A DNA stretch of 64,000 nucleotides from Mustelus asterias. Lineage: Eukaryota. Shown one piece after another: positions 1 through 64,000 of the stretch (the first letter of the stretch is position 1; every line of letters begins with the position of its first letter). The position numbers were made by a program, and so were the translations under genes. Location of the stretch: assembly GCF_964213995.1 (NCBI RefSeq), contig NC_135805.1:24242001-24306000 (forward strand), written 5' to 3'. A model generated the notes under the pieces. The model was not told where the DNA came from. It made no database searches and saw only the letters and a list, made by a program, of their open reading frames with translations.

Positions 1-898
1 GTGGTCTCTGTTCTCCAACAGTGCACAGACACAGGAATCAAGTTACAGAATACTAATTAGAATGCAAATCTCTACAGCCAGCCAGGCCTTAAAAGGTACA
101 GATAATGTGGTTGGAGGGAACATTAAACACAGGTTAAAGAGATGTGTATTGTCTCCAGACAGAACAGCTGGTGAGATTATGCAAGACCAGGGGCAAGCTG
201 TGGGGGTTACTGATAATGTGACATAAATCCAACATCCCGGTTTAGGCCGTCCTCATGTGTGCGGAACTTGGCCATCAGTTTCTGCTCAGCGACTCTGCAC
301 TGTCGTGTGTTGTGAAGGCCGCCTTGGAGAACGCTTACCTGAAGATCCAAGGCTGAATGCCCGTGACTGCTGAAGTGCTCCCCAACAGGAAGAGAACAGT
401 CACGGGCATTCAGCCTTGGATCTTCAGGTAAGCGTTCTCCAAGGCGGCCTTCACAACACACGACAGTGCAGAGTCGCTGAGCAGAAACTGATAGCCAAGT
501 TCCGCACACATGAGGACGGCCTAAACCGGGATGTTGGATTTATGTCACATTATCAGTAACCCCCACAGCTTGCCCCTGGTCTTGAATAATCTCACCAGCT
601 GTTCTGTCTGGAGACAATACACATCTCTTTAACCTGTGTTTAATGTTCCCTCCAACCACATTATCTGTACCTTTTAAGACCTGGCTGGCTGTAGAGATTT
701 GCATTCTAATTAGTATTCTGTAACTTGATTTCTGTGTCTGTGCACTGTTGGAGAACAGAGACCACTCCATCTGACGAAGGAGCAGCATGCTCCGAAAGCT
801 TATGGTATTTGCTACCAAATAAACCTGTTGGACTTTAACCTGGTGTTGTGAGACTTCTTACTGTGCTTACCCCAGTCCAATGCCGGCATCTCCACATC
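1..898. mobile_element. Penelope-like element (PLE) 3' fragment arranged as an inverted duplication (GIY-YIG C-terminus + pLTR); left arm runs off the window
   Basis: ORF 207..509(-) ends ...DCSLPVGEHFSSHGHSALDLQVSVLQGGLHNTRQCRVAEQKLMAKFRTHEDGLNRDVGFMSHYQ, typical of vertebrate PLE GIY-YIG C-termini. 1-366 is the reverse complement of ~400-764. Ends in the family terminus ...ccggcatctccacat. Confidence 0.85.
767..805 (+). ncRNA. Minimal type I hammerhead ribozyme in PLE pLTR
   Basis: CCAT-CTGACGA-A-GGAGCA(gca)TGCTCC-GAAA-GCT-T-ATGG: core boxes CUGANGA and GAAA, stem II GGAGCA/TGCTCC, palindromic AGCT replacing stem III, stem I CCAT/ATGG. Confidence 0.75.
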
Positions 899-6294: not shown

Positions 6295-7865
6295 CTGAAG
6301 ATAACAATATAAAGAGGAATTTTAAAAAAGTCAAGTCAGTTTGATAAAAGCCTACTTTATTGTGTATATAAAATGACCACAAATATTTGGTGTATACCTA
6401 ATCACAACCAAATAATTCCTGAAAACCAGTTTCATTCCTACTTGGGAAAGTGTGTCAGCCACTTTTGTCCCCCAAAGGATACAAGTTAATAGGGCCAACA
6501 GGACAGTGCTAGAGCATTAATTGGCTGGTAAGTGATAAAATGCTGGTCTCTGTATAGTAATGTTAGTTGCGCAACCATAAGGAAATAGCTCGAAGTTTGT
6601 TAACTAAGCGTATGGAGCAAGAGTAGGAAATTGGTGATGGGGGACAGATCAACCATAGTTTGTCCAAGTGGAGTAGCAGGCCAGCGGGGTTGATGGGCCT
6701 GCTGCTGTCTACTGTAAAGCAGACTTCAGCACAAAAAGAAGCTAGGGAAAGAGAATCCTTTGTACGGTAGGGGAATTAGGAGTGAGCAATAAATACTGGC
6801 CTGGCCACCAACACCCACAACCGAATAATTAATTTTAAAAAACATTTTTGAGCATTCCATGGAAGTCTGGGAACAATCTGATCATCTGTTTAGCCAGAAT
6901 AGTACATAGCACATGAAGAGTGAAGAAAGAGGAATTGTCAACTTCAAAGTCAGATTGTTTCTGGTGTAAAGAAATAGAAGCATTCTAAAGGTAGTCTGAC
7001 AAGTTACTCTGCCCACCAGCACAACTGAGCAAATACCTATGTTATCATTATTGAAACATACTCATTGGAAACATTGGCAGTGCATGCTGAACAGCAAGAG
7101 CAGGTTCAGATTTGGTTGATGCCCATTGGCTATATAGCCTATCAATATTTAGCAACTCAACTTACTCAAAAAAGTAGCCACTTGGACAAGGTACGTACCT
7201 GAACTGACAGGAAAGGAGGACAACATTTGCCATAAAGAAACAATATGGGACATATAAAAAAGTGTGTGTATATACTACGGACATTATGCAAGAGTTGCCA
7301 TTCAAGACTACAGCTTCGTTAGCTGCAAACAGAAACTACAGAAATATATGGCTCAACTAGCTACTAAATATATATTAACTGTGGCCAAAATCCCACATTG
7401 CAGCAGGTTACTCGATTTTGAATGTAGTGGACTTACATGGGTTTTAGATATTCTGAAAGATAACCAGAAAAAATGTCTGGCCACAGCACATTTATTCCAT
7501 GCTACAAAAGAAGGTTGGTCAATTTTAAAACTCCAAGTGGTAAATCTCATTATTATTCCTAAAACCTATCTATACTTATTCATTCCACCTGTTGTATTAT
7601 ACATCTTCCACTGATAAACATTCACTAGACTACTCCTTTGTGACATTTTCTATTCAATCTCATTCAAAGATAAAACTAATGTCTAATATGATCATCTAAA
7701 CCGATGACAGGTTATATATACCCTTTGCAAAATGAAATGTCAACGTTGTTCACTTTTTAGTACTATACCACTTATATCTGCCAATCTCAGATCACGTTAC
7801 AAAAGCCTCCACTGGTAGTATTTTTATATCTATCTGTAATACAAAGCTCTGGCTCCATCAGTAAA

Positions 7866-8107
7866 CACAGTAAGAAGTCTCACAACACCAGGTTAAAGTC
7901 CAACAGGTTTATTTGGTAGCAAATACCATAAGCTTTCGGAGCGCTGCCCCTTCGTCAGATGGAGTGACAGATTTTCACTCCATCTGACGAAGAGGCAGCG
8001 CTCCGAAAGCTTATGGTATTTGCTACCAAATCAACCTGTTGGACTTTAACCTGGTGTTGTGAGACTTCTTACTGTGCTTACCCCAGTCCAACGCCGGCAT
8101 CTCCACA
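7866..8107. mobile_element. Palindromic PLE pLTR mini-insert with hammerheads on both strands
   Basis: ~100-bp inverted arms around a 9-nt spacer; TSD tccatcagtaaa (7854-7865 and 8108-8119); HHR(-) 7926-7962, HHR(+) 7980-8016. Confidence 0.85.
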
Positions 8108-9319
8108 TCCATCAGTAAAGTCAGGACAACTATACTCTATACATTTATGAACTTGCCTAGCACAATGAGTCCAAAGAGTTCAACAAACTCCTGCGCACTG
8201 CAAACTTAATTTGACATTGCATTGGAATTATCCTCTATTTAGTGTCAACCAACCCCTAAGGATGCAAGGGAGTTGTGCTAAATCTGCAGCACAAACACAG
8301 CCTTAAGAGTCCAATGGGAATGTTAAAAATATCCTATTGCTTTTGTCACATAGCACAAACAATTCAATTTCATAAACACCAAATAAAAATAATTAATGTA
8401 ATGAATCACGATCATTCTTATAGGGAAAAACAACAAAATCTAATTTTCTGGATTTTTAACAGATAGAATGGACAAATGAGAAGTGCTGAAGTAGTTTCTA
8501 AAACTTTTCCCACAATTTTTATTCCATTCGTCCCTGGAACTATTAAACTATATACCTAATAACGGGCAGATAGGATGCAAGTTTACAAGAAATGAACAAA
8601 CAAATCTGATGATAATACATTTCAAGGACAACTGTGGGGGTCAAAGGGAGTTTGATTAGCTGTTGCAATACCCACTTGTTGTTATCAAAGCCAGGCAAGC
8701 TAACTTGAAGCTTGGTATGCTGCGTTCCTAAAAATAGAACAAGCTTCAGTTTGGAATCTGAGAATAGAACAGCTGATGTACAGAGAAAAAGCAAACAGAA
8801 AAAGGAAGAACCAGTTGTAAGTGTCTGAGCAACACGTTAGAGGAATAAGGCAGGTTCCGAAATGAACAATGACAAGGAAAATAATCAAAAATTAGAAGAT
8901 TAAATGGTATAGCACTCAAACACAAGGCAGAAGGGTTTGTAACAAAAATGTGGAAGGACACCAGGTAAAAGAAAAAGTTGCACACTAGTGAAATGGGCTG
9001 GGGACAGATAGAGCAGCATAAAAGAAGAGAAAATATTGAGAGATTGAGGTGGCTACTGTAGAGACCAGAACCAATTTCACGGTGTCAAAATTATATCACT
9101 GACTTGGTTTCAGAAACCACATACAATTAACAACATAGAAACAGGCCATTCTGCCTAACCCGTCTGTGCTGGTGTTCATGCTCCCACCTTACTTCACCTC
9201 ACCCTATCAGCACATCCTTCTCTTCCTTTCTCCCGCTCATGTACTTGTCCATCTTCTCTTTAAATACTTCATGCTATTCACTCAGTTATTTCATGTGATA
9301 GTAAGTTTCACTTCCTGAT

Positions 9320-20399: not shown

Positions 20400-23300
20400 G
20401 GCTGCCTTTCCTATTCCATTTCAAAAATATTCAGTGATCCTGCCTCCATTACTCTCTGATGGAAGAGAATTAGGTTGATGGCCCGCTGAGAGAGAAAAAA
20501 ATCCCTTCTCTCTGTCTTAAATGGCAGACTCTCTATTTTTATATACCATTCTGTTTGTCGGGCTTGCTATGCTCAAATTGCCTGCTCCATTTCACTATAT
20601 TACAACAGTTCTAGTCTCTTTGCTAAGACTAAACTTCTTTTTAGCAACCGCCCTGTCAGATCCTCGCAGATATTATATATTTCAATTAGGTCACCTCTCA
20701 TTCTTCTAAACTCTAATGGATACAAACCCAACCTGTCAAATATTTCCTCCTAACATAACCCCTTCATTCTAGATATAACCTCTGCACTGCTTCTAGTGCA
20801 ATTATATCCTTTCTGAAATAAGGAAACTAGAACTGTGCAGTATTCCAGATGTGGTCTCACCAACATCCTGTACAACTGTAGCAAGACATCCCAACCTTTA
20901 TGTTCTGTTCTGTTTGCAATCAACATTAATTTCCATTAGAGGTGAGGCTATATTGGATCTGGTGCTGGGAAATGAGCCAGACCAGGTGCTAGACTTGGAA
21001 GTTGGTGTGCATTTTGGTGATAGTGACCACAATTCGGTTACGTTCACCTTAGTGATGGAAAGGGATAGGCATGAACCTCGGGCCAGTGGTTTTAGCTGGG
21101 GGAAGGGTAATTATGAGGCTATTAGGAGAGAATTAGGAAACATAGGTTGGACTAGGAGATTACAGGGACTGGGAACGTCCGACATGTGGAGTTTTTTCAA
21201 GGAGCAGCTACTGCGAGTCTGTGATAGGTATGTCCCTGTCAGGCAAGGAGGAATTGGTAGGGCTAGGGAACCGTGGTGCACCAAAAAAGTTTCTTTGTTG
21301 GTTAAAAAGAAAAAGGAGGCTTATGTTCGGATGAGACGTGAGCACTCGGGTAGTGCACTAGAAAGCTTTAGATTGGCTAAGAGGGAGTTGAAGAGCGAGC
21401 TTAGAAGGGCTAAAAGGGGACATGAGAAGACTTTGGCGGATAGGGTTAAAGAGAATCCTAAGGCGTTCTATAGGTATGTCAAGAACAGAAGGTTGGTTAG
21501 GGCAAGTTTAGGGCCAGTTATAGATGGCAGAGGGAAGTTATGTGTGGAACCGGAGGAGATTGGTGAAGCATTGAACCAATATTTCTCTTCGGTGTTCACG
21601 CAAGGGGACATGAATATAGCTGAGGAGGACACTGGGTTGCAAGGGAGTAGAATAGACAGTATTACAGTTGATAAGGAGGATGTGCAGGATATTCTGGAGG
21701 GTCTGAAAATAGATAAATCCCCTGGTCCGGATGGGATTTATCCAAGGATTCTCTGGGAGGCAAGAGAAGTGATTGCAGAGCCTCTGGCTCTGATCTTCAG
21801 GTCGTCGTTGGCCTCTGGTATAGTACCAGAAGATTGGAGGTTAGCGAATGTTGTCCCATTGTTTAAGAAGGGGAACAGAGACTTCCCCGGGAATTATAGA
21901 CCGGTGAGTCTCACTTCTGTTGTCGGCAAGATGTTGGAAAAAATTATAAGGGATAGGATTTATAGTTATTTGGAGAGTAATGAATTGATAGGTGATAGTC
22001 AGCATGGTTTTGTGGCAGGTAGGTCGTGCCTTACTAACCTTATTGAGTTTTTTGAGAAAGTGACCAAGGAGGTGGATGGGGGCAAGGCAGTGGACGTGGT
22101 ATATATGGATTTTAGTAAGGCGTTTGATAAGGTTCACCATGGTAGGCTTCTGCAGAAAATGCAGATGTATGGGATTGGGGGTGATCTAGGAAATTGGATC
22201 AGGAATTGGCTAGCGGATAGGAAACAGAGGGTGGTGGTTGATAGTAAATATTCATCATGGAGTGCGGTTACAAGTGGTGTACCTCAGGGATCTGTTTTGG
22301 GGCCACTGCTGTTTGTAATATTTATTAATGATCTGGATGAGGGTATAGTTGGGTGGATTAGCAAATTTGCTGATGACACCAAAGTCGGTGGTGTGGTAGA
22401 CAGTGAGGAAGGGTGTCGTAGTTTGCAGGAAGACTTAGACAGGTTGCAAAGTTGGGCCGAGAGGTGGCGGATGGAGTTTAATGCGGAGAAGTGTGAGGTA
22501 ATTCACTTTGGTAGGAATAACAGATGTGTTGAGTATAGGGCTAACGGGAGGACTTTGAATAGTGTGGAGGAGCAGAGGGATCTAGGTGTATGTGTGCATA
22601 GATCCCTGAAAGTTGGGAATCAAGTAGATAAGGTTGTTAAGAAGGCATATGGTGTCTTGGCGTTTATTGGTAGGGGGATTGAATTTAGGAGTCGTAGCGT
22701 TATGTTGCAACTGTACACAACTCTGGTGCGACCGCACTTGGAGTACTGTGTGCAGTTCTGGTCCCCACATTACAGGAAGGATGTGGAGGCTTTGGAGAGG
22801 GTGCAGAGGAGGTTTACCAGGATGTTGCCTGGTATGGAGGGGAGATCCTATGAGGAGAGGCTGAGGGATTTGGGATTGTTTTCGCTGGAAAGGCGGCGGC
22901 TAAGAGGGGATCTTATTGAAACATATAAGATGATTAGAGGTTTAGATAGGGTGGATAGTGATAGCCTTTTTCCTCTGATGGAGAAATCCAGCACGAGGGG
23001 GCATGGCTTTAAATTGAGGGGGGGTAGTTATAGAACCGATGTCAGGGGTAGGTTCTTTACCCAGAGGGTGGTGAGGGATTGGAATGCCCTGCCAGCATCA
23101 GTAGTAAATGCGCCTAGTTTGGGGGCGTTTAAGAGATCCGTAGATAGGTTCATGGACGAAAAGAAATTGGTTTAGGTTGGAGGGTCACAGTTTTTTTTTT
23201 AACTGGTCGGTGCAACATCGTGGGCCGAAGGGCCTGTTCTGCGCTGTAATGTTCTATGTTCTATTAGTCTTCCTAATCACTTGCTGTACCTGCATACTAA

Positions 23301-27682: not shown

Positions 27683-28022
27683 ATCGCTTCTCGGCCTTTT
27701 GGCGAAGATCAAGTGTAGTATGGATTGGATGCTGCACTTGGTTGAGGTCATTGGGTTACATTGAAGCTTCATATGTTTCATATGAAGCAATTTTTAAAAG
27801 CTGCATCCCGGCCTTTTGGCTAAGATGCAAATGAGCTCAAGTCTTGGAGGAGGTGTTGCTTTGCTGCTCCAATCAACTTGGCTCATGTAGATCAGGCCCA
27901 GGACAGGGTGATTTGGTCGCTCGCCCTGTCTTGTCAGCCTGGATCTGAAATGTCTCAACTTGTTGAGACTCTGAATTGGATTTGATTTGATTGAATTGGA
28001 AAAGTATATTTTTTAAAAATAT
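27683..28022 (+). mobile_element. U2 snRNA-headed, highly structured SINE-like insert (candidate SINEU / non-autonomous Keno-Utopia derivative)
   Basis: 27683-27721 = U2 nt 1-39 (one mismatch at 27704); second U2 fragment at 27809-27826; five hairpins; AT-rich tail; 15-bp TSD atatcgtggtgtgga (27663-27677 and 28023-28037). Confidence 0.7.
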
Positions 28023-28028
28023 ATATCG

Positions 28029-28943
28029 TGGTGTGGAGATGCCGGCGTTGGACTGGGGTGAACGCAGTAAGAGTTTTAACAACACCAGGTTAAAGTCCAA
28101 CAGGTTTATTTGGTAGCCAATACCATTAGCTTTCGGAACGCTGCTCCTTCGTCAGATGGAGTGGGAATCTGCTCTCAAACAGGGCACAGAGACACAAAAT
28201 CAAGTTACAGAATACTGATTAGAATGCGAATCCCTACAAGATACAGACAATGTGAGTGGAGGGAGCATTAAGCACAGGTTAAAGAGATGTGTATTGTCTC
28301 CAGACAGGACAGCCAGCAAGTCCAGGAGGCAAGCTGTGGGGGTTACTGATAATGTGACATAAATCCAACATCCCGGTTTAGGCCGTCCTCGTGTGCGCAA
28401 TTTGGCTATCAGTTTCTGCTCAGCGACTCTGCGCTGTCATATGTCGTGTAGGCCGCCTTGGAGAACGCTTACCCGAAGATCAGAGGCTGAATGCCCGTGA
28501 CCGCTGAAGTGCTCCCCCACAGGAAGAGAACAGTCTTGCCTGGTGATTGTCGAGCGGTGTTCATTCATCCGTTGTTGTAGCGTCTGCATGGTTCCGCACA
28601 CATGAGGACGGCCTAAACCAGGATGTTGGATTTATGTCACATTATCAGTAACCCCCACAGCTTGCCTCCTGGACTTGCTGGCTGTCCTGTCTGGAGACGA
28701 TACACATCTCTTTAACCTGTGCTTAATGCTCCCTCCACTCACATTGTCTGTATCTTTAAGATCTGGTTGGTTGTAGGGATTCACATTCTAATCCGTATTC
28801 TGTAACTTGATTTTGTGTCTCTGTGCCCTGATTGAGAGCAGATTTCCACTCCATCTGACGAAGGAGCAGCGTTCTGAAAGCTAATGGTATTTGCTACCAA
28901 ATAAACCTGTTGGACTTTAACCTGGTGTTGTTAAAACTCTTAC
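28029..28943. mobile_element. Penelope-like element 3' fragment with inverted duplication, hammerheads on both strands
   Basis: Same family as 1-898; arms ~28066-28400 and ~28592-28943; HHR(-) 28123-28159, HHR(+) 28851-28887; TSD acttagaagcatatcg (27653-27668 and 28942-28957). Confidence 0.88.
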
Positions 28944-32454: not shown

Positions 32455-33085
32455 TGATGTGAGTCATTGATTGGGGTGCATCACAGTTGCAGTCAGGGTT
32501 CCATGCAAAGCCCCATTTGTGTCAATTTGCTGCACAAAGGCCATAACCAGTGTGGAAACAGTTGAAGAGTGCCCAATGTTGACATGGCAGATTGAAGCCG
32601 GATGGACAGGCTGTGATCTGTGATGAGGAAGTGGTTTTTAATGATGACGTGTTCATTCCATTACTGCTGCCTTGGAGTCTCTGTTGTTATTCCTTGGCAT
32701 GGTGGTCTTAATGTGGAGATGCCAACGTTGGACTGGGGTAAACACAGTAAGAAGTTTAACAACACCAGGTTAAAGTCCAACAGGTTTATTTGGTAGCAAA
32801 AGCCACAAGCTTTCGGAGCCCTAAGCCCCTTAAGGCTCCGAAAGCTTGTGGCTTTTGCTACCAAATAAACCTGTTGGACTTTAACCTGGTGTTGTTAAAC
32901 TTCTTATGGTGGTCTTAGCCATACATTCTGGCATGATCGGAGGCAAGCAGTAGGCGGATTGGTACGGTCCTTGTGTAGCGGCAGGCTTGGGTTGATGTAA
33001 ACCTTCTCCAAGAGCTTTCTTGTTGCAATCTCCCTCTGTATGTGACGAGGTATGTTGCTGAGACTGGGAGCCAGGGGAGTTAAGT
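32455..33085 (-). mobile_element. Vingi/Ingi-like LINE 3' fragment, degraded, interrupted by a PLE palindrome
   Basis: Minus-strand translation with frameshifts gives LPVLSNIP...PLHKD..NPP and PSGFNLP..HWALFNCFHTGYGLCAAN.HKWG...PDCNCD, the Vingi C-terminal pattern. Confidence 0.55.
32711..32905. mobile_element. Palindromic PLE pLTR mini-insert (centre falls inside hammerhead stem II)
   Basis: Inverted arms 32748-32820 and 32834-32906; TSD atggtggtctta (32699-32710 and 32906-32917). Confidence 0.85.
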
Positions 33086-34811: not shown

Positions 34812-34996
34812 TTGGTAGCAAAAGCCACTAGCTTTTGGAGCGCTGCTCCTTCGTCAGGTAAGTGCCACTTACCTGACGAAGGAGCAGCGCTCCAAAAGCT
34901 AGTGGCTTTTGCTACCAAATAAACCTGTTGGACTTTAACCTGGTGTTGTGAGACTTCTTACTGTGTTTACCCCAGTCCAATGCCGGCATCTCCACA
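34812..34996. mobile_element. Palindromic PLE pLTR mini-insert inserted in a CR1 tail
   Basis: Perfect palindrome 34811-34919 (1-nt centre); TSD ttgtgtgattctt (34799-34811 and 34997-35009); both hammerhead copies carry GAAA>AAAA. Confidence 0.87.
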
Positions 34997-40474: not shown

Positions 40475-40702
40475 TGATGTGGAGATGCCGGCGTTGGACT
40501 GGGGTAAACACAGTAAGAAGTTTAACAACACCAGGTTAAAGTCCAACAGGTTTATTTGGTAGCAAAAGCCACACAAGCTTTCGAGGCTCTGAGCCCCTTC
40601 TTCTTCACTCACCTGAAGAAGGGGCTCAGAGCCTCGAAAGCTTGTGTGGCTTTTGCTACCAAATAAACCTGTTGGACTTTAACCTGGTGTTGTTAAACTT
40701 CT
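40475..40702. mobile_element. Palindromic PLE pLTR mini-insert, second subfamily
   Basis: Inverted arms; TSD tactctacagag (40463-40474 and 40703-40714). Confidence 0.87.
40610..40646 (+). ncRNA. Minimal hammerhead ribozyme, variant subfamily
   Basis: CAC-CTGAAGA-A-GGGGCT(cag)AGCCTC-GAAA-GCT-T-GTG; stems differ in sequence from the 767-805 copy but still pair. Confidence 0.75.
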
Positions 40703-53519: not shown

Positions 53520-53690
53520 CATGGCTTGGTTGATAGCATTCTCACCTATTGAATCAGAAAATTATGAATACAAGTCTCACTCCAGGACCTGAGCGCAACT
53601 ATCCAGGCTGCTGTCCAGTGCAGTACTCACAGGTGCTGTCTTTCAGGTGAAACATTAAACCGAGGTTGTGTCTGTTATCCTGAGTGGAAT
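53520..53690 (+). mobile_element. Deu-domain SINE 5' part
   Basis: tggcttggttgatagcattctcacc...caagtctcactccagg...gtgctgtctttcaggtgaaacattaaaccgagg. Confidence 0.55.
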
Positions 53691-53693
53691 ATC

Positions 53694-53760
53694 TGTAAGA
53701 AGTCTCACAACACCAGGTTAAAGTCCAACAGGTTTATTTGGTAGCAAATACCATAAGCTC
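53694..53760 (-). mobile_element. PLE pLTR fragment
   Basis: gtaagaagtctcacaacaccaggttaaagtccaacaggtttatttggtagcaaataccataagct. Confidence 0.8.
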
Positions 53761-60929: not shown

Positions 60930-61425
60930 ATAATGGAAACTGCAAGCCCTGGGAACCTTGTGTAAATAAACATTGGTTCTCTGCAGTTAATTTCACAGAG
61001 CTATCAATCAAGCAATTAGAGAGCCAGAGCTGTCAATCAGTGTCTTCCCTGGGGCTCAGGAGTTTCGAAGTGGAGATGCCGGCTTTGGACTGGGGTAAAC
61101 ACAGTAAGAGTTTTAACAACACCAGGTTAAAGTCCAACAGGTTTATTTGGTAGCAAATGCCGTGAACCTGTTGGACTTTAACCTGGTGTTGTTAAAACTC
61201 TTGCTGTGCTCAGGAGTTTCACCAGAGTAATGGATGACTGGGCTCTCAGCCGAGAATACACAAGACTTGGCTCAGAGACCAGACATTCAGTATTCTCATG
61301 AAACACCTGAGCCCCAGAGAAGACACTGATTGATAGCTCTGGCTCTCTAACCTCTGCTGGCAATTTCACAATGTTTATTTGCACACGGTTAAGATATATC
61401 AAGCATTTGCAGTTTCAACTATTGA
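60930..61425. repeat. Imperfect long inverted repeat (probable DNA-transposon/MITE interior), interrupted by a PLE mini-insert
   Basis: 61016-61066 pairs with 61300-61350; 60962-60974 with ~61370-61383; 60932-60945 with ~61407-61423. Confidence 0.55.
61067..61207. mobile_element. Short palindromic PLE pLTR insert lacking the hammerhead
   Basis: Arms ...aacaccaggttaaagtccaacagg / cctgttggactttaacctggtgtt; TSD gctcaggagtttc (61054-61066 and 61208-61220). Confidence 0.83.
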
Positions 61426-61659: not shown

Positions 61660-61778
61660 CAGTAAGAAGTCTCACAACACCAGGTTAGTTTATTTGGTAA
61701 CAAATACCATAAGCTTTCGGAGCACTGCTCCTTCGTCAGGTGGAGTGGAAATGTGCTCTCAAACAGTGCAAACAGACA
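61660..61778 (-). mobile_element. Single-arm PLE pLTR insert with hammerhead (61707-61743, minus strand)
   Basis: TSD ccataatggaaa (61648-61659 and 61779-61790); minus strand reads ccac-ctgacga-a-ggagc-agt-gctcc-gaaagct-t-atgg. Confidence 0.8.
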
Positions 61779-62876
61779 CCATAATGGAAATCCAGACCTA
61801 TGAGTTTGAGAGGAACACTAGGAAGGGCAGCTTGTGTGAAGGAATGTGCACAATATAGCTTTGCAACTCCTTTACCCACTTTAAAGCGTATCATTATTAC
61901 ACAGACATGTCAACTTGTAGCATAAACCACATCTCAGCAACAACCATCTTTTGTAAAGCATTGCTACTGCAGACAATTCTCTGGAAAAAAATGTAAGATC
62001 TCTCTTTTTACACTTTGTTAATGTACTTGGTGGATGGGTGAGTGCTGCGCACTTCTGATATTACCTGATTAATCTGGCATATTTCAAAAAGCAAAGTGAT
62101 TCAGAATTACCATAGGAAACCAGTTGTGCATTATGTTGACTTGGAAGGTGGAAAATAGTACCCCCAGAGCAAATAGCATAAAAGTACAGATATAATTCCA
62201 GCTTATTAGCCTAGATTTTCTGATTTCAGAGACTTCACCTGTAAACCTTCATCCCACAGAATAGTGACTGTGGAGTATTTCTCTCTGGGCAAGAAAGAAA
62301 GTTCCAGTCTGTCAGTAAAGATAATAAAACCAAAGCGAACATCCATTTGGTTTGCTAATCTGGTACTTGATATCATTTTATGATTGCCCCATTGAATCAT
62401 TTGTCTCCCTTATGAATTGCAAATGTCCCTCCCCAGCAAGATCCATGGCACAATTTTGGTAACTATATTCTCGATGGTTGTTTTTTGCAATTGTTTTTTC
62501 AAATTTCACAGCTCTGTTTTCACATATGCAACAGATCTCTCAGAAAGCTTACTGCATAGTTAGGGGTTTGTGATCCTAATGAAAGTTGGTTTACCAAACC
62601 TTGGAAGTATGTGAAAGTCTTTGTTTAAACTAGAAACCTTGAAAAACAAGTTTGGAAAAAAAAACATATGTAGCGTGCAATTTTCTGGCTCACTTTTCAA
62701 AACTCAGGGCAATAAGACATCTTCAGCAGCTGATGTCATTTCCCTTTGCAAACAAAAATACCATGATGGATTTGGCAAATGCAGACTGCGAAGCTTGCTA
62801 CAGGACTGGTTTCTGTCTTTGTCCAGTCATTGGACCAAAAGCATAATTCTGCTTTTTGATGTTGTAATGTTTTGAA

Positions 62877-63175
62877 GCTTATTTATTAGTGTCACAAGTA
62901 GGCTTACATTAAAACTGCAATGAAGTTACTGTGAAAATTCCCTAGTCACCACACTCCGGCGCCTGTTCGGGTACATTGAGGGAAAATTTAGCATGGCCAA
63001 TGTACCTAACCAGCACATAATTCTGATTGTGTGAGGAAACCGGAGCATCTTGAGGAAACACACGCAGACACGGAGAACATGCAGACTGCACAGAGGCAGT
63101 GACCCAAGCTGGGAATTGAATCCAGGTTCCTGGCGCTGTGAGACAGCAGTGCTAACCACTTTGTCACCATGCCGC
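62877..63175 (-). mobile_element. V-SINE family 2
   Basis: Reverse complement of the 31019-31320 type. Confidence 0.82.
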
Positions 63176-63299
63176 AAAGTGGGAACAGGCTGGATAGTAA
63201 AAGCTTCTATATTTCAAGAAGAGTTAAGCATATTTGGAATGATCTGCTTTGCATTTATACCAACAGAACTGAGGAGATTTGGGCTCCATAACTAAACGG

Positions 63300-63690
63300 T
63301 CTGCTTCTTCCCATTCTCCAATTCATTTTTATGGTGCTCTTTTGTCTTCCTCCCTCTCACTACACCTCTGTTTGATAGTTGCAGTTTTTGTACTCTGGTA
63401 TAATTGATATAATGTGTAAATAATTGAGGCCCAAGCATTGATCTTTGCGCTACCCCATTAGTCACGGCCTGCCAATGTGAAAATTACCCATTTATTCCTA
63501 CTCTCTGTTCTGGCTGGTAAACAATTCATAAAACGATTTTCCCTACTTCCATCAACTCTAGTTTTGTGTAGTTACTGTTTGTATGGCACTTTATCAAATA
63601 CTTTTTGCAAATCCAAATGCACTATACCTGCCGTTTTCTCCTTGCTAGTTACAGCCTCGAAAGCTCTACTAGATTTTTCAAACACCATTC
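63300..63690 (-). mobile_element. Degraded CR1 RT fragment
   Basis: ggcactttatcaaatactttttgcaaatcc (DxxKxFDKVP, antisense) and gaggcccaagcattgatc (SxLGP, antisense). Confidence 0.55.
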
Positions 63691-63696
63691 CTATAT

Positions 63697-63990
63697 GGGT
63701 GGCATGGTGCCACAGTGGTTAGCGCTGCTGCCTCACAGTGGCAGGGACCCCGGTTCGATTCTCAGCTCGGGTCACTGTCTGTGCGGAGTCTGCAGGTTCT
63801 CTCCATGTCATTGTAGATTTTCTCCGGGTCTTCTGGTTTCCTCCCACAGTCTGATTAGGTGCGTTGGCCATGCTAAATTCTCCCTCTGTGTACCCAAACA
63901 GGTGCCGGAGTGTGGCAACTAGGGGATTTTCACACAACTTTCTTGCAGTGTTAACGTAAGCCTACTTGTGACACTAATAAATAAACTTTA
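63697..63990 (+). mobile_element. V-SINE family 2
   Basis: gggtggcatggtgccacagtggttagc...ggttcgattc...gtacccaaacaggtgccggagtgtggc...taataaataaacttt. Confidence 0.82.
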
Positions 63991-64000
63991 AATTTATTTC

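Follow-up and report, generated by a model that had tools for sequence, protein, structure and literature searches.

Inverted Penelope-like element ends bearing minimal hammerhead motifs in the shark Mustelus asterias: probable one-event integration products of a Neptune-type element

The insertion unit described for EN+ Penelope-like elements (PLEs) consists of an inverted, 5'-truncated pLTR, a one-sided tail of 30-40 bp and a target-site duplication (TSD) (Arkhipova 2013, PMC3846280; Craig 2021, PMC8557442). Within this group, a CX2-5CxxC linker upstream of the GIY-YIG nuclease together with a CCHH motif is the mark of Neptune and Nematis (PMC8557442). The transcription start of the D. virilis Penelope lies in its 5' repeat region (PMC2377424, PMC8557442). 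For the minimal hammerheads of PLEs, low activity even as dimers was reported, as were dual motifs lying on opposite strands at a distance of 100-700 bp (PMC4209133). The Anolis Poseidon element PAc was studied in vitro, where two reverse transcription (RT) starts bound the tail, both strands are nicked and extended, and a dimer is predicted (Frangieh 2024, PMC11167929). The same study reports no RNA-seq reads ending at the cut, and names uncut RNA as the dominant template. Two questions are left open in the texts of PMC8557442, PMC4209133 and PMC11167929, namely how PLEs make one-tailed inverted units and whether minimal hammerheads cut in vivo.

The window, a 64-kb stretch of M. asterias DNA, holds several such units. 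They are read here as 5'-truncated head-to-head products of an abundant Neptune-type PLE, each of which probably arose separately in a single integration event, and the probability of this reading is put at roughly 0.8.

The insert at 7866-8107, its neighbours and the parent element

Insert 7866-8107: This 242-bp head-to-head PLE pLTR insertion has 107-nt arms, a 31-nt one-sided tail and a 12-bp TSD (Table 1). The inverted arms (7861-7967 and 7975-8081) are 97% complementary, and their outermost 5 nt fall in the TSD. Judged from the longer arm of the sister locus L005, the arms would overlap by 2 nt (GA) at the junction. The tail continues into an ATG in longer sister copies, and this ATG is likely the ORF start. 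No empty site was found in the four contig sets compared over 7400-8600, in which the flanks of the insert are present. The preliminary description had noted complete cores on both strands, and the pattern CUGANGA-N-stem II-GAAA-GCU-H is indeed found at 7926-7962 (-) and 7980-8016 (+). The stem II that it quoted, GGAGC/GCUCC, is absent from this copy, which has GGGGC/GCUCC on the minus strand and GAGGC/GCUCC, with the mismatch A7993.C8003, on the plus strand.

Other inserts: All eight inserts listed in that description are PLE ends (8/8). Its statement that most are head-to-head pairs of 140-240 bp holds for 5/8, at 141-242 bp. Its TSD length of 12-16 bp stands as exact duplications of 12-13 bp for six in-window inserts and of 13 bp for 1-898, and falls for 28029, which has no clean TSD. 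Two strict cores are present in three of the eight (7866, 28029 and 1-898), one core in 40475, and none in the other four.

Table 1. Coordinates of the PLE inserts in the window and of the parts of insert 7866-8107
Feature	Position	Strand	Remarks
Head-to-head insert, ~1 kb	1-898		Left end ~97 bp outside the window; arms extend to the endonuclease C-terminus; both cores intact; TSD 13 bp
Left TSD, 12 bp, TCCATCAGTAAA	7854-7865	+	Repeated at 8108
pLTR arm without tail	7866-7967	-	Inner end 9 nt upstream of hammerhead C3
Minimal type I hammerhead	7926-7962	-	AGCU present; stem I CCAU/AUGG and stem II GGGGC/GCUCC; cleavage predicted between 7930 and 7929
Head-to-head junction	7966-7974		Exact junction twice in the genome
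pLTR arm with tail	7968-8076	+	Inner end 16-18 nt upstream of C3
Minimal type I hammerhead	7980-8016	+	Stem II has an A.C mismatch; cleavage predicted between 8012 and 8013
One-sided PLE tail, 31 nt	8077-8107	+	Right side only
Right TSD	8108-8119	+	12 bp
Head-to-head insert, 915 bp	28029-28943		Reaches into the GIY-YIG domain; two cores; no clean TSD
Pair, 195 bp	32711-32905		Joined inside stem II; no core; 12-bp TSD
Pair, 185 bp	34812-34996		Same G12-to-A change in both cores (GAAA to AAAA); 13-bp TSD
Pair, 228 bp, CAC/GUG + GGGGCU/AGCCUC subfamily	40475-40702		Only the + arm has a core; junction found once in the genome; TSD 12 bp
Single short arm, ninth fragment beyond the eight	~53690-53759	-	Starts inside AGCU
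Pair, 141 bp	61067-61207		Arms meet 3' of the hammerhead; no core; TSD 13 bp
Single arm without tail	61660-61778	-	Short internal deletion; mismatch at first stem I pair; 12-bp TSD

Surroundings: The window contains 13 pLTR anchors (~200 per Mb), compared with 76 per Mb in the genome sample. Its ORFs of at least 150 aa, which we take to be LINE pieces or non-coding frames, include no identified host gene. A 792-aa open frame at 20797-23175 (+) encodes a LINE-like reverse transcriptase, presumably of CR1 type. A U2 snRNA-like copy at 27683-27878 (+), ~150 bp from the 28029 insert, scores 45.4 bits against the Rfam gathering score of 46; its 5' part is well preserved and its 3' part matches poorly. 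At 62871-63992 a repeat, presumably SINE-like, occurs twice in inverted orientation, ~0.8-1 kb apart and 87-89% complementary. Host sequence around the 61067 insert forms a 51-nt inverted repeat (94%; 61016-61350).

Parent element: By its sequence, 7866-8107 is the pLTR of a Neptune-type PLE. The PLE origin proposed earlier is supported by RT/GIY-YIG frames that adjoin the same pLTR. The longer arms in the window (1-898 and 28029) translate to a GIY-YIG C-terminus, and the endonuclease piece has 58,259 first-look candidates in the genome. Among eight long-frame loci fetched, several have RT-to-EN frames of 385-611 aa adjoining the same pLTR; no full-length intact copy was recovered among them. 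Pfam found RVT_1 in two of three proteins scanned (E 5e-9) and GIY-YIG in one (E 4e-4, below Pfam's cut-off). As in EN+ PLEs, a single ORF with RT and C-terminal GIY-YIG stands next to the pLTR, and the insertion unit likewise comprises an inverted 5'-truncated copy, a one-sided tail and a TSD. Two proteins (P0001 and P0002) have a CX4CxxC linker upstream of GIY-YIG and two Cys within it. An initial label of Penelope/Poseidon was replaced by Neptune-type on the basis of this linker before the nuclease. Another PLE inverted pair, at L142:1803-8651, has arms of ~1.4 kb with 95% identity and a LINE inserted between them.

Head-to-head pairs across the genome and how they may be made

Census: The sample comprised 131 evenly spaced 10-kb stretches, i.e., 1.31 Mb of the 3.68-Gb genome, in which arms were located by a 27-nt pLTR anchor that misses diverged copies. 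It yielded 99 arms. Successive arms were head-to-head in 31 cases, all within 1.6 kb, versus 10 tail-to-tail, two ++ and two --, and the head-to-head layout is therefore not due to chance. Extrapolation gives genome totals of ~278,000 arms and ~87,000 pairs, and sizes form a continuum from ~120-bp stubs to copies bearing RT/GIY-YIG. Exactly one tail is present in 30/31 sampled pairs, where independent choice by the arms would give at best 50% (P=1.5e-8). The same holds for 6/6 pairs in the window, 15/15 and 40/40 junction-selected pairs, 24/25 similarity-selected pairs and 13/15 EN-selected pairs. The two RT starts would therefore be coupled within an event.

Centres and inner ends: Inner distances range from 3 to 1,301 nt. 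Leaving aside the two-tail pair and four pairs with more than 60 unexplained nt between the arms, 26 clean pairs remain, and all 26 differ in centre. Their junctions show microhomology overlaps in 10 cases, blunt joins in two and insertions in 14. Many junction insertions (L212, L213 and others among the listed junctions) copy nearby sequence, a feature that we take to resemble polymerase theta-type end joining. Within a pair, the positions of the two inner ends are correlated (rho 0.81), with 15/26 pairs within 10 nt versus 5.0 after permutation (0/20,000). The stem II variant is the same in both arms of 33/39 pairs, compared with 5.9 in shuffles, which shows that the two arms mostly have a common source. 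The ends also pile up by position: 23/52 lie 0-20 nt upstream of C3, two in the next 21 nt and six in the 21 nt downstream. This pile just 5' of the hammerhead likely marks the RNA start.

Proposed route: The endonuclease would make a staggered cut of 10-15 bp. Both target 3' ends would then prime reverse transcription, one at the outer start (the tail end) and the other 31-40 nt further in. Most cDNAs would stop together at the RNA start, which probably corresponds to a transcription start located 0-20 nt 5' of the core, and a few per cent would stop at the hammerhead cut site. The two cDNA ends would finally be joined via microhomology or short templated insertions, with hotspots at self-complementary hexamers. 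Stubs would often keep a whole hammerhead per arm because the cDNAs run off at a start upstream of it. In a more specific form, a dimeric PLE protein would always begin at the outer start on one of the target strands and at the inner start on its partner, with both cDNAs running off the RNA 5' end, which is usually the transcription start and sometimes a hammerhead-made end. The chances for and against this form are evenly balanced. For the route as a whole, the data on two starts were obtained in vitro with a Poseidon element and not with a Neptune element. Time-coupled copying from two starts was rejected, since it predicts an inner-end offset of ~37 nt and the median seen is 1.5.

Matched inner ends are also predicted by fold-back copying or by later central deletion. 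One cDNA could fold back, self-prime and copy the second arm, with a later central deletion perhaps adding symmetry, and this route would also give arms from the same source. Self-priming was proposed for PLE palindromic junctions (PMC3846280), and in the 7866 subfamily a cDNA whose end lies close to the cut site is able to fold into a hairpin at that end. The route is nevertheless unlikely. The longer inner arm is the tailed one in five of the 26 clean pairs, the tail-less one in 11 and neither in 10, and a tailed cDNA that folds back cannot give a longer tail-less arm. Arms resembling different templates were found in 7/46 pairs (summed score 64 against a null of 41, maximum 50, this rough null ignoring mutation hotspots), which speaks against fold-back and is not explained by run-off from one RNA. 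A GAAUUC centre would probably need a 2-nt loop in cis, whereas it pairs over 6 bp in trans. Moreover, very short pairs with 0-1 arm differences exist, so shortness does not come only from late decay.

The question of a retrozyme-like family: The palindromes had been proposed to be a self-propagating, non-autonomous, retrozyme-like family, for which shared centres would speak. The census of centres came out against this: centres are largely different, with one centre common to many copies. In the 7866 group (CCAU), most of the first 50 junctions listed among 1,628 short-gap pairs differ; the 7866 junction itself recurs exactly at one other site, at a distance of 1.75 Mb and between unrelated flanks, and the 40475 centre occurs once. 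In a second group of 671 short-gap pairs, 16 of the first 50 listed have the GGGAATTCCC centre, which has 192 exact copies genome-wide. Three loci (L007, L009 and L012) also have a common centre. These repeated centres favour a family, as does the retention in the stubs of the tail region reported as a priming site for a PLE protein. On the other hand, 20 copies with the GGGAATTCCC centre (16 exact and four near-exact, out of 192), compared by their variants with 20 at other centres, carry six or more variants of stem II, most of which also occur at other centres, and have varied outer ends. The centre sits on GAATTC, a 6-nt palindrome already present in the long parental arms, and on this sequence evidence it is a microhomology hotspot, not a clone. 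A fixed structure inherited by descent was thus not found among the 20 of 192 hotspot copies examined. The census sample contains no head-to-tail tandem with at least two same-sense hammerheads; there are four same-strand neighbours, none within 1.6 kb. Because the hammerheads are of opposite sense, no retrozyme circle would be excised. The junction sequences have already largely refuted a retrozyme-like family, and its probability is very low.

Hammerhead motif, predicted folds and copy ends at the cut site

Motif: The core CUGANGA / GAAA / UH is present in 66 sampled arms, with T 35, C 17, A 13 and G 1 at H17, and T 26, A 23 and C 17 at N7; the strict core test was passed by 43/99 sampled arms. 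Stem cells are paired in 90%, over 36 distinct motifs. The covariation of stems between subfamilies claimed earlier is supported by 19 two-sided changes versus 4.7 in shuffles (0/500), a count that does not control for relatedness and, the subfamilies being related, represents only a few events. The first stem I pair is CG in 20 and UA in nine motifs, and stem II has A-U versus G-C between subfamilies. The AGCU palindrome is invariant and replaces helix III. As had been suggested, the motif agrees with the minimal hammerhead of PLEs with its palindromic AGCU (PMC4209133). Searches against the Rfam hammerhead families gave no match at E<=1; the only Rfam matches were to miRNA precursors, because the inserts form hairpins. 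The pattern CUGAUGA has 0 matches in the window, because the inserts there have C or A at N7. Eight similarity-ranked loci, the window copy among them, show a one-arm G-to-A 'hotspot' in stem II; it is absent from 15 junction-selected and 31 sampled pairs and was rejected as an artefact of ranking loci by likeness to the query.

Folding: If transcribed, the full 7866 insert is predicted to form the long RNA hairpin that had been expected, at -192 and -202 kcal/mol for the two strands. The accompanying claim of a cleavable ribozyme whichever strand is read is not supported. Forcing the hammerhead fold in the full insert costs 74 and 72 kcal/mol more, compared with 2-7 in an isolated arm, and there is no dimer partner in cis. 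Each strand has one sense hammerhead preceded by its own antisense copy, and the antisense arm is transcribed first on either strand. The inserts are predicted to be dead as ribozymes because each hammerhead pairs with its own antisense copy. A small hairpin lies directly 3' of the predicted cut (8014-8028 and 40644-40662), where it competes with stem I. After cleavage it would form a cap at the 5' end of the product, and it is missing in the shorter-spacer subfamilies.

A further reading is that the inserts serve the host from within introns, as ribozyme or dsRNA switches that work in either orientation. The stability of the predicted hairpins agrees with this, and ~56,000 short pairs, by extrapolation, would be a large source of dsRNA if transcribed. 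The energy penalty on the ribozyme fold speaks against it, as do the stem II mismatch in the 7866 plus core, the decay of the arms with CpG-type changes in G8 and G12, and the low frequency of two strict cores (8/31 sampled pairs, with none in 14/31). With no host gene identified in the window, such a host function is extremely improbable.

Copy ends at the cut site: Very short-arm pairs fall into three groups of 536, 1,825 and 41. In the cut-at-21 group (nt from the anchor), 46/77 ends between 18 and 28 lie at 20-22, counted by eye in the first 50 junctions listed, where one locus present in duplicate entered the tally twice, with both ends past 28. A scripted tally on 20 of these loci gave 19/33 (P=2e-4). 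The excess in this group is confounded by a cDNA hairpin that ends there. The cDNA end at the cut is not paired in the cut-at-23 subfamily, where ends at positions 23-29 number 15, 4, 4, 0, 2, 1 and 2 (by eye; P=1e-6); assignment to it needs an arm reaching 23, so that only the drop beyond 23 is shown, and the first 15 loci alone give little excess. The signal is weaker in the cut-at-14 subfamily, with ~16/82 ends at 13-15 by eye, and is given no weight here. Among sampled pairs, the cut-site-ending class accounts for 1/26. The odds that the excess is a trace of hammerhead cleavage in vivo are about even on these copy ends. If so, the copy ends would provide in vivo evidence for germ-line cutting by a metazoan minimal hammerhead and for the cut RNA serving as a template. 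A literature search covering article texts found no account of shark PLE stubs or of genomic copies ending at a hammerhead cut; Fig. S2 of PMC11167929, in which genomic copy ends are mapped, may be relevant here.

Comparison with known systems

The element itself is ordinary, with a known PLE layout and a known ribozyme motif. Like published EN+ PLE units, the shark units have head-to-head arms, one tail, a TSD, microhomology or a palindrome at the junction and the Neptune-type CX2-5CxxC linker (PMC3846280, PMC8557442). In contrast to the units described in those texts, most here consist of the pLTR end only and exist in tens of thousands of copies, and the one-tail rule and the matched inner ends are quantified here. 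The extrapolated set of pairs would be a record of PLE integration, and its ends allow start site, cut site and strand coupling to be predicted exactly.

The shark motif resembles the minimal PLE hammerhead in being type I, with an extra nucleotide after A9, G10.1-C11.1, a palindromic 15.2/16.2 and no helix III, and differs in having a stem II of 5-6 bp and a stem I of 3-4 bp (PMC4209133). The text of that study gives no in vivo evidence, whereas an excess of copies ending at the cut is seen here.

The non-LTR retrozymes (Cervera 2020, PMC7229834; Li 2026, bioRxiv 10.64898/2026.07.22.740005) are likewise small, non-coding, hammerhead-bearing and PLE-related. In retrozymes, however, two or more hammerheads of the same sense lie in a head-to-tail tandem that yields circular RNA (PMC7229834); the shark inserts are inverted, and each strand of a pair has a single sense hammerhead. 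PAc is similar in its two starts bounding the tail, its use of both strands and a product length set by the RNA 5' end; unlike the shark element, it is a Poseidon whose ORF starts inside the hammerhead (PMC11167929).
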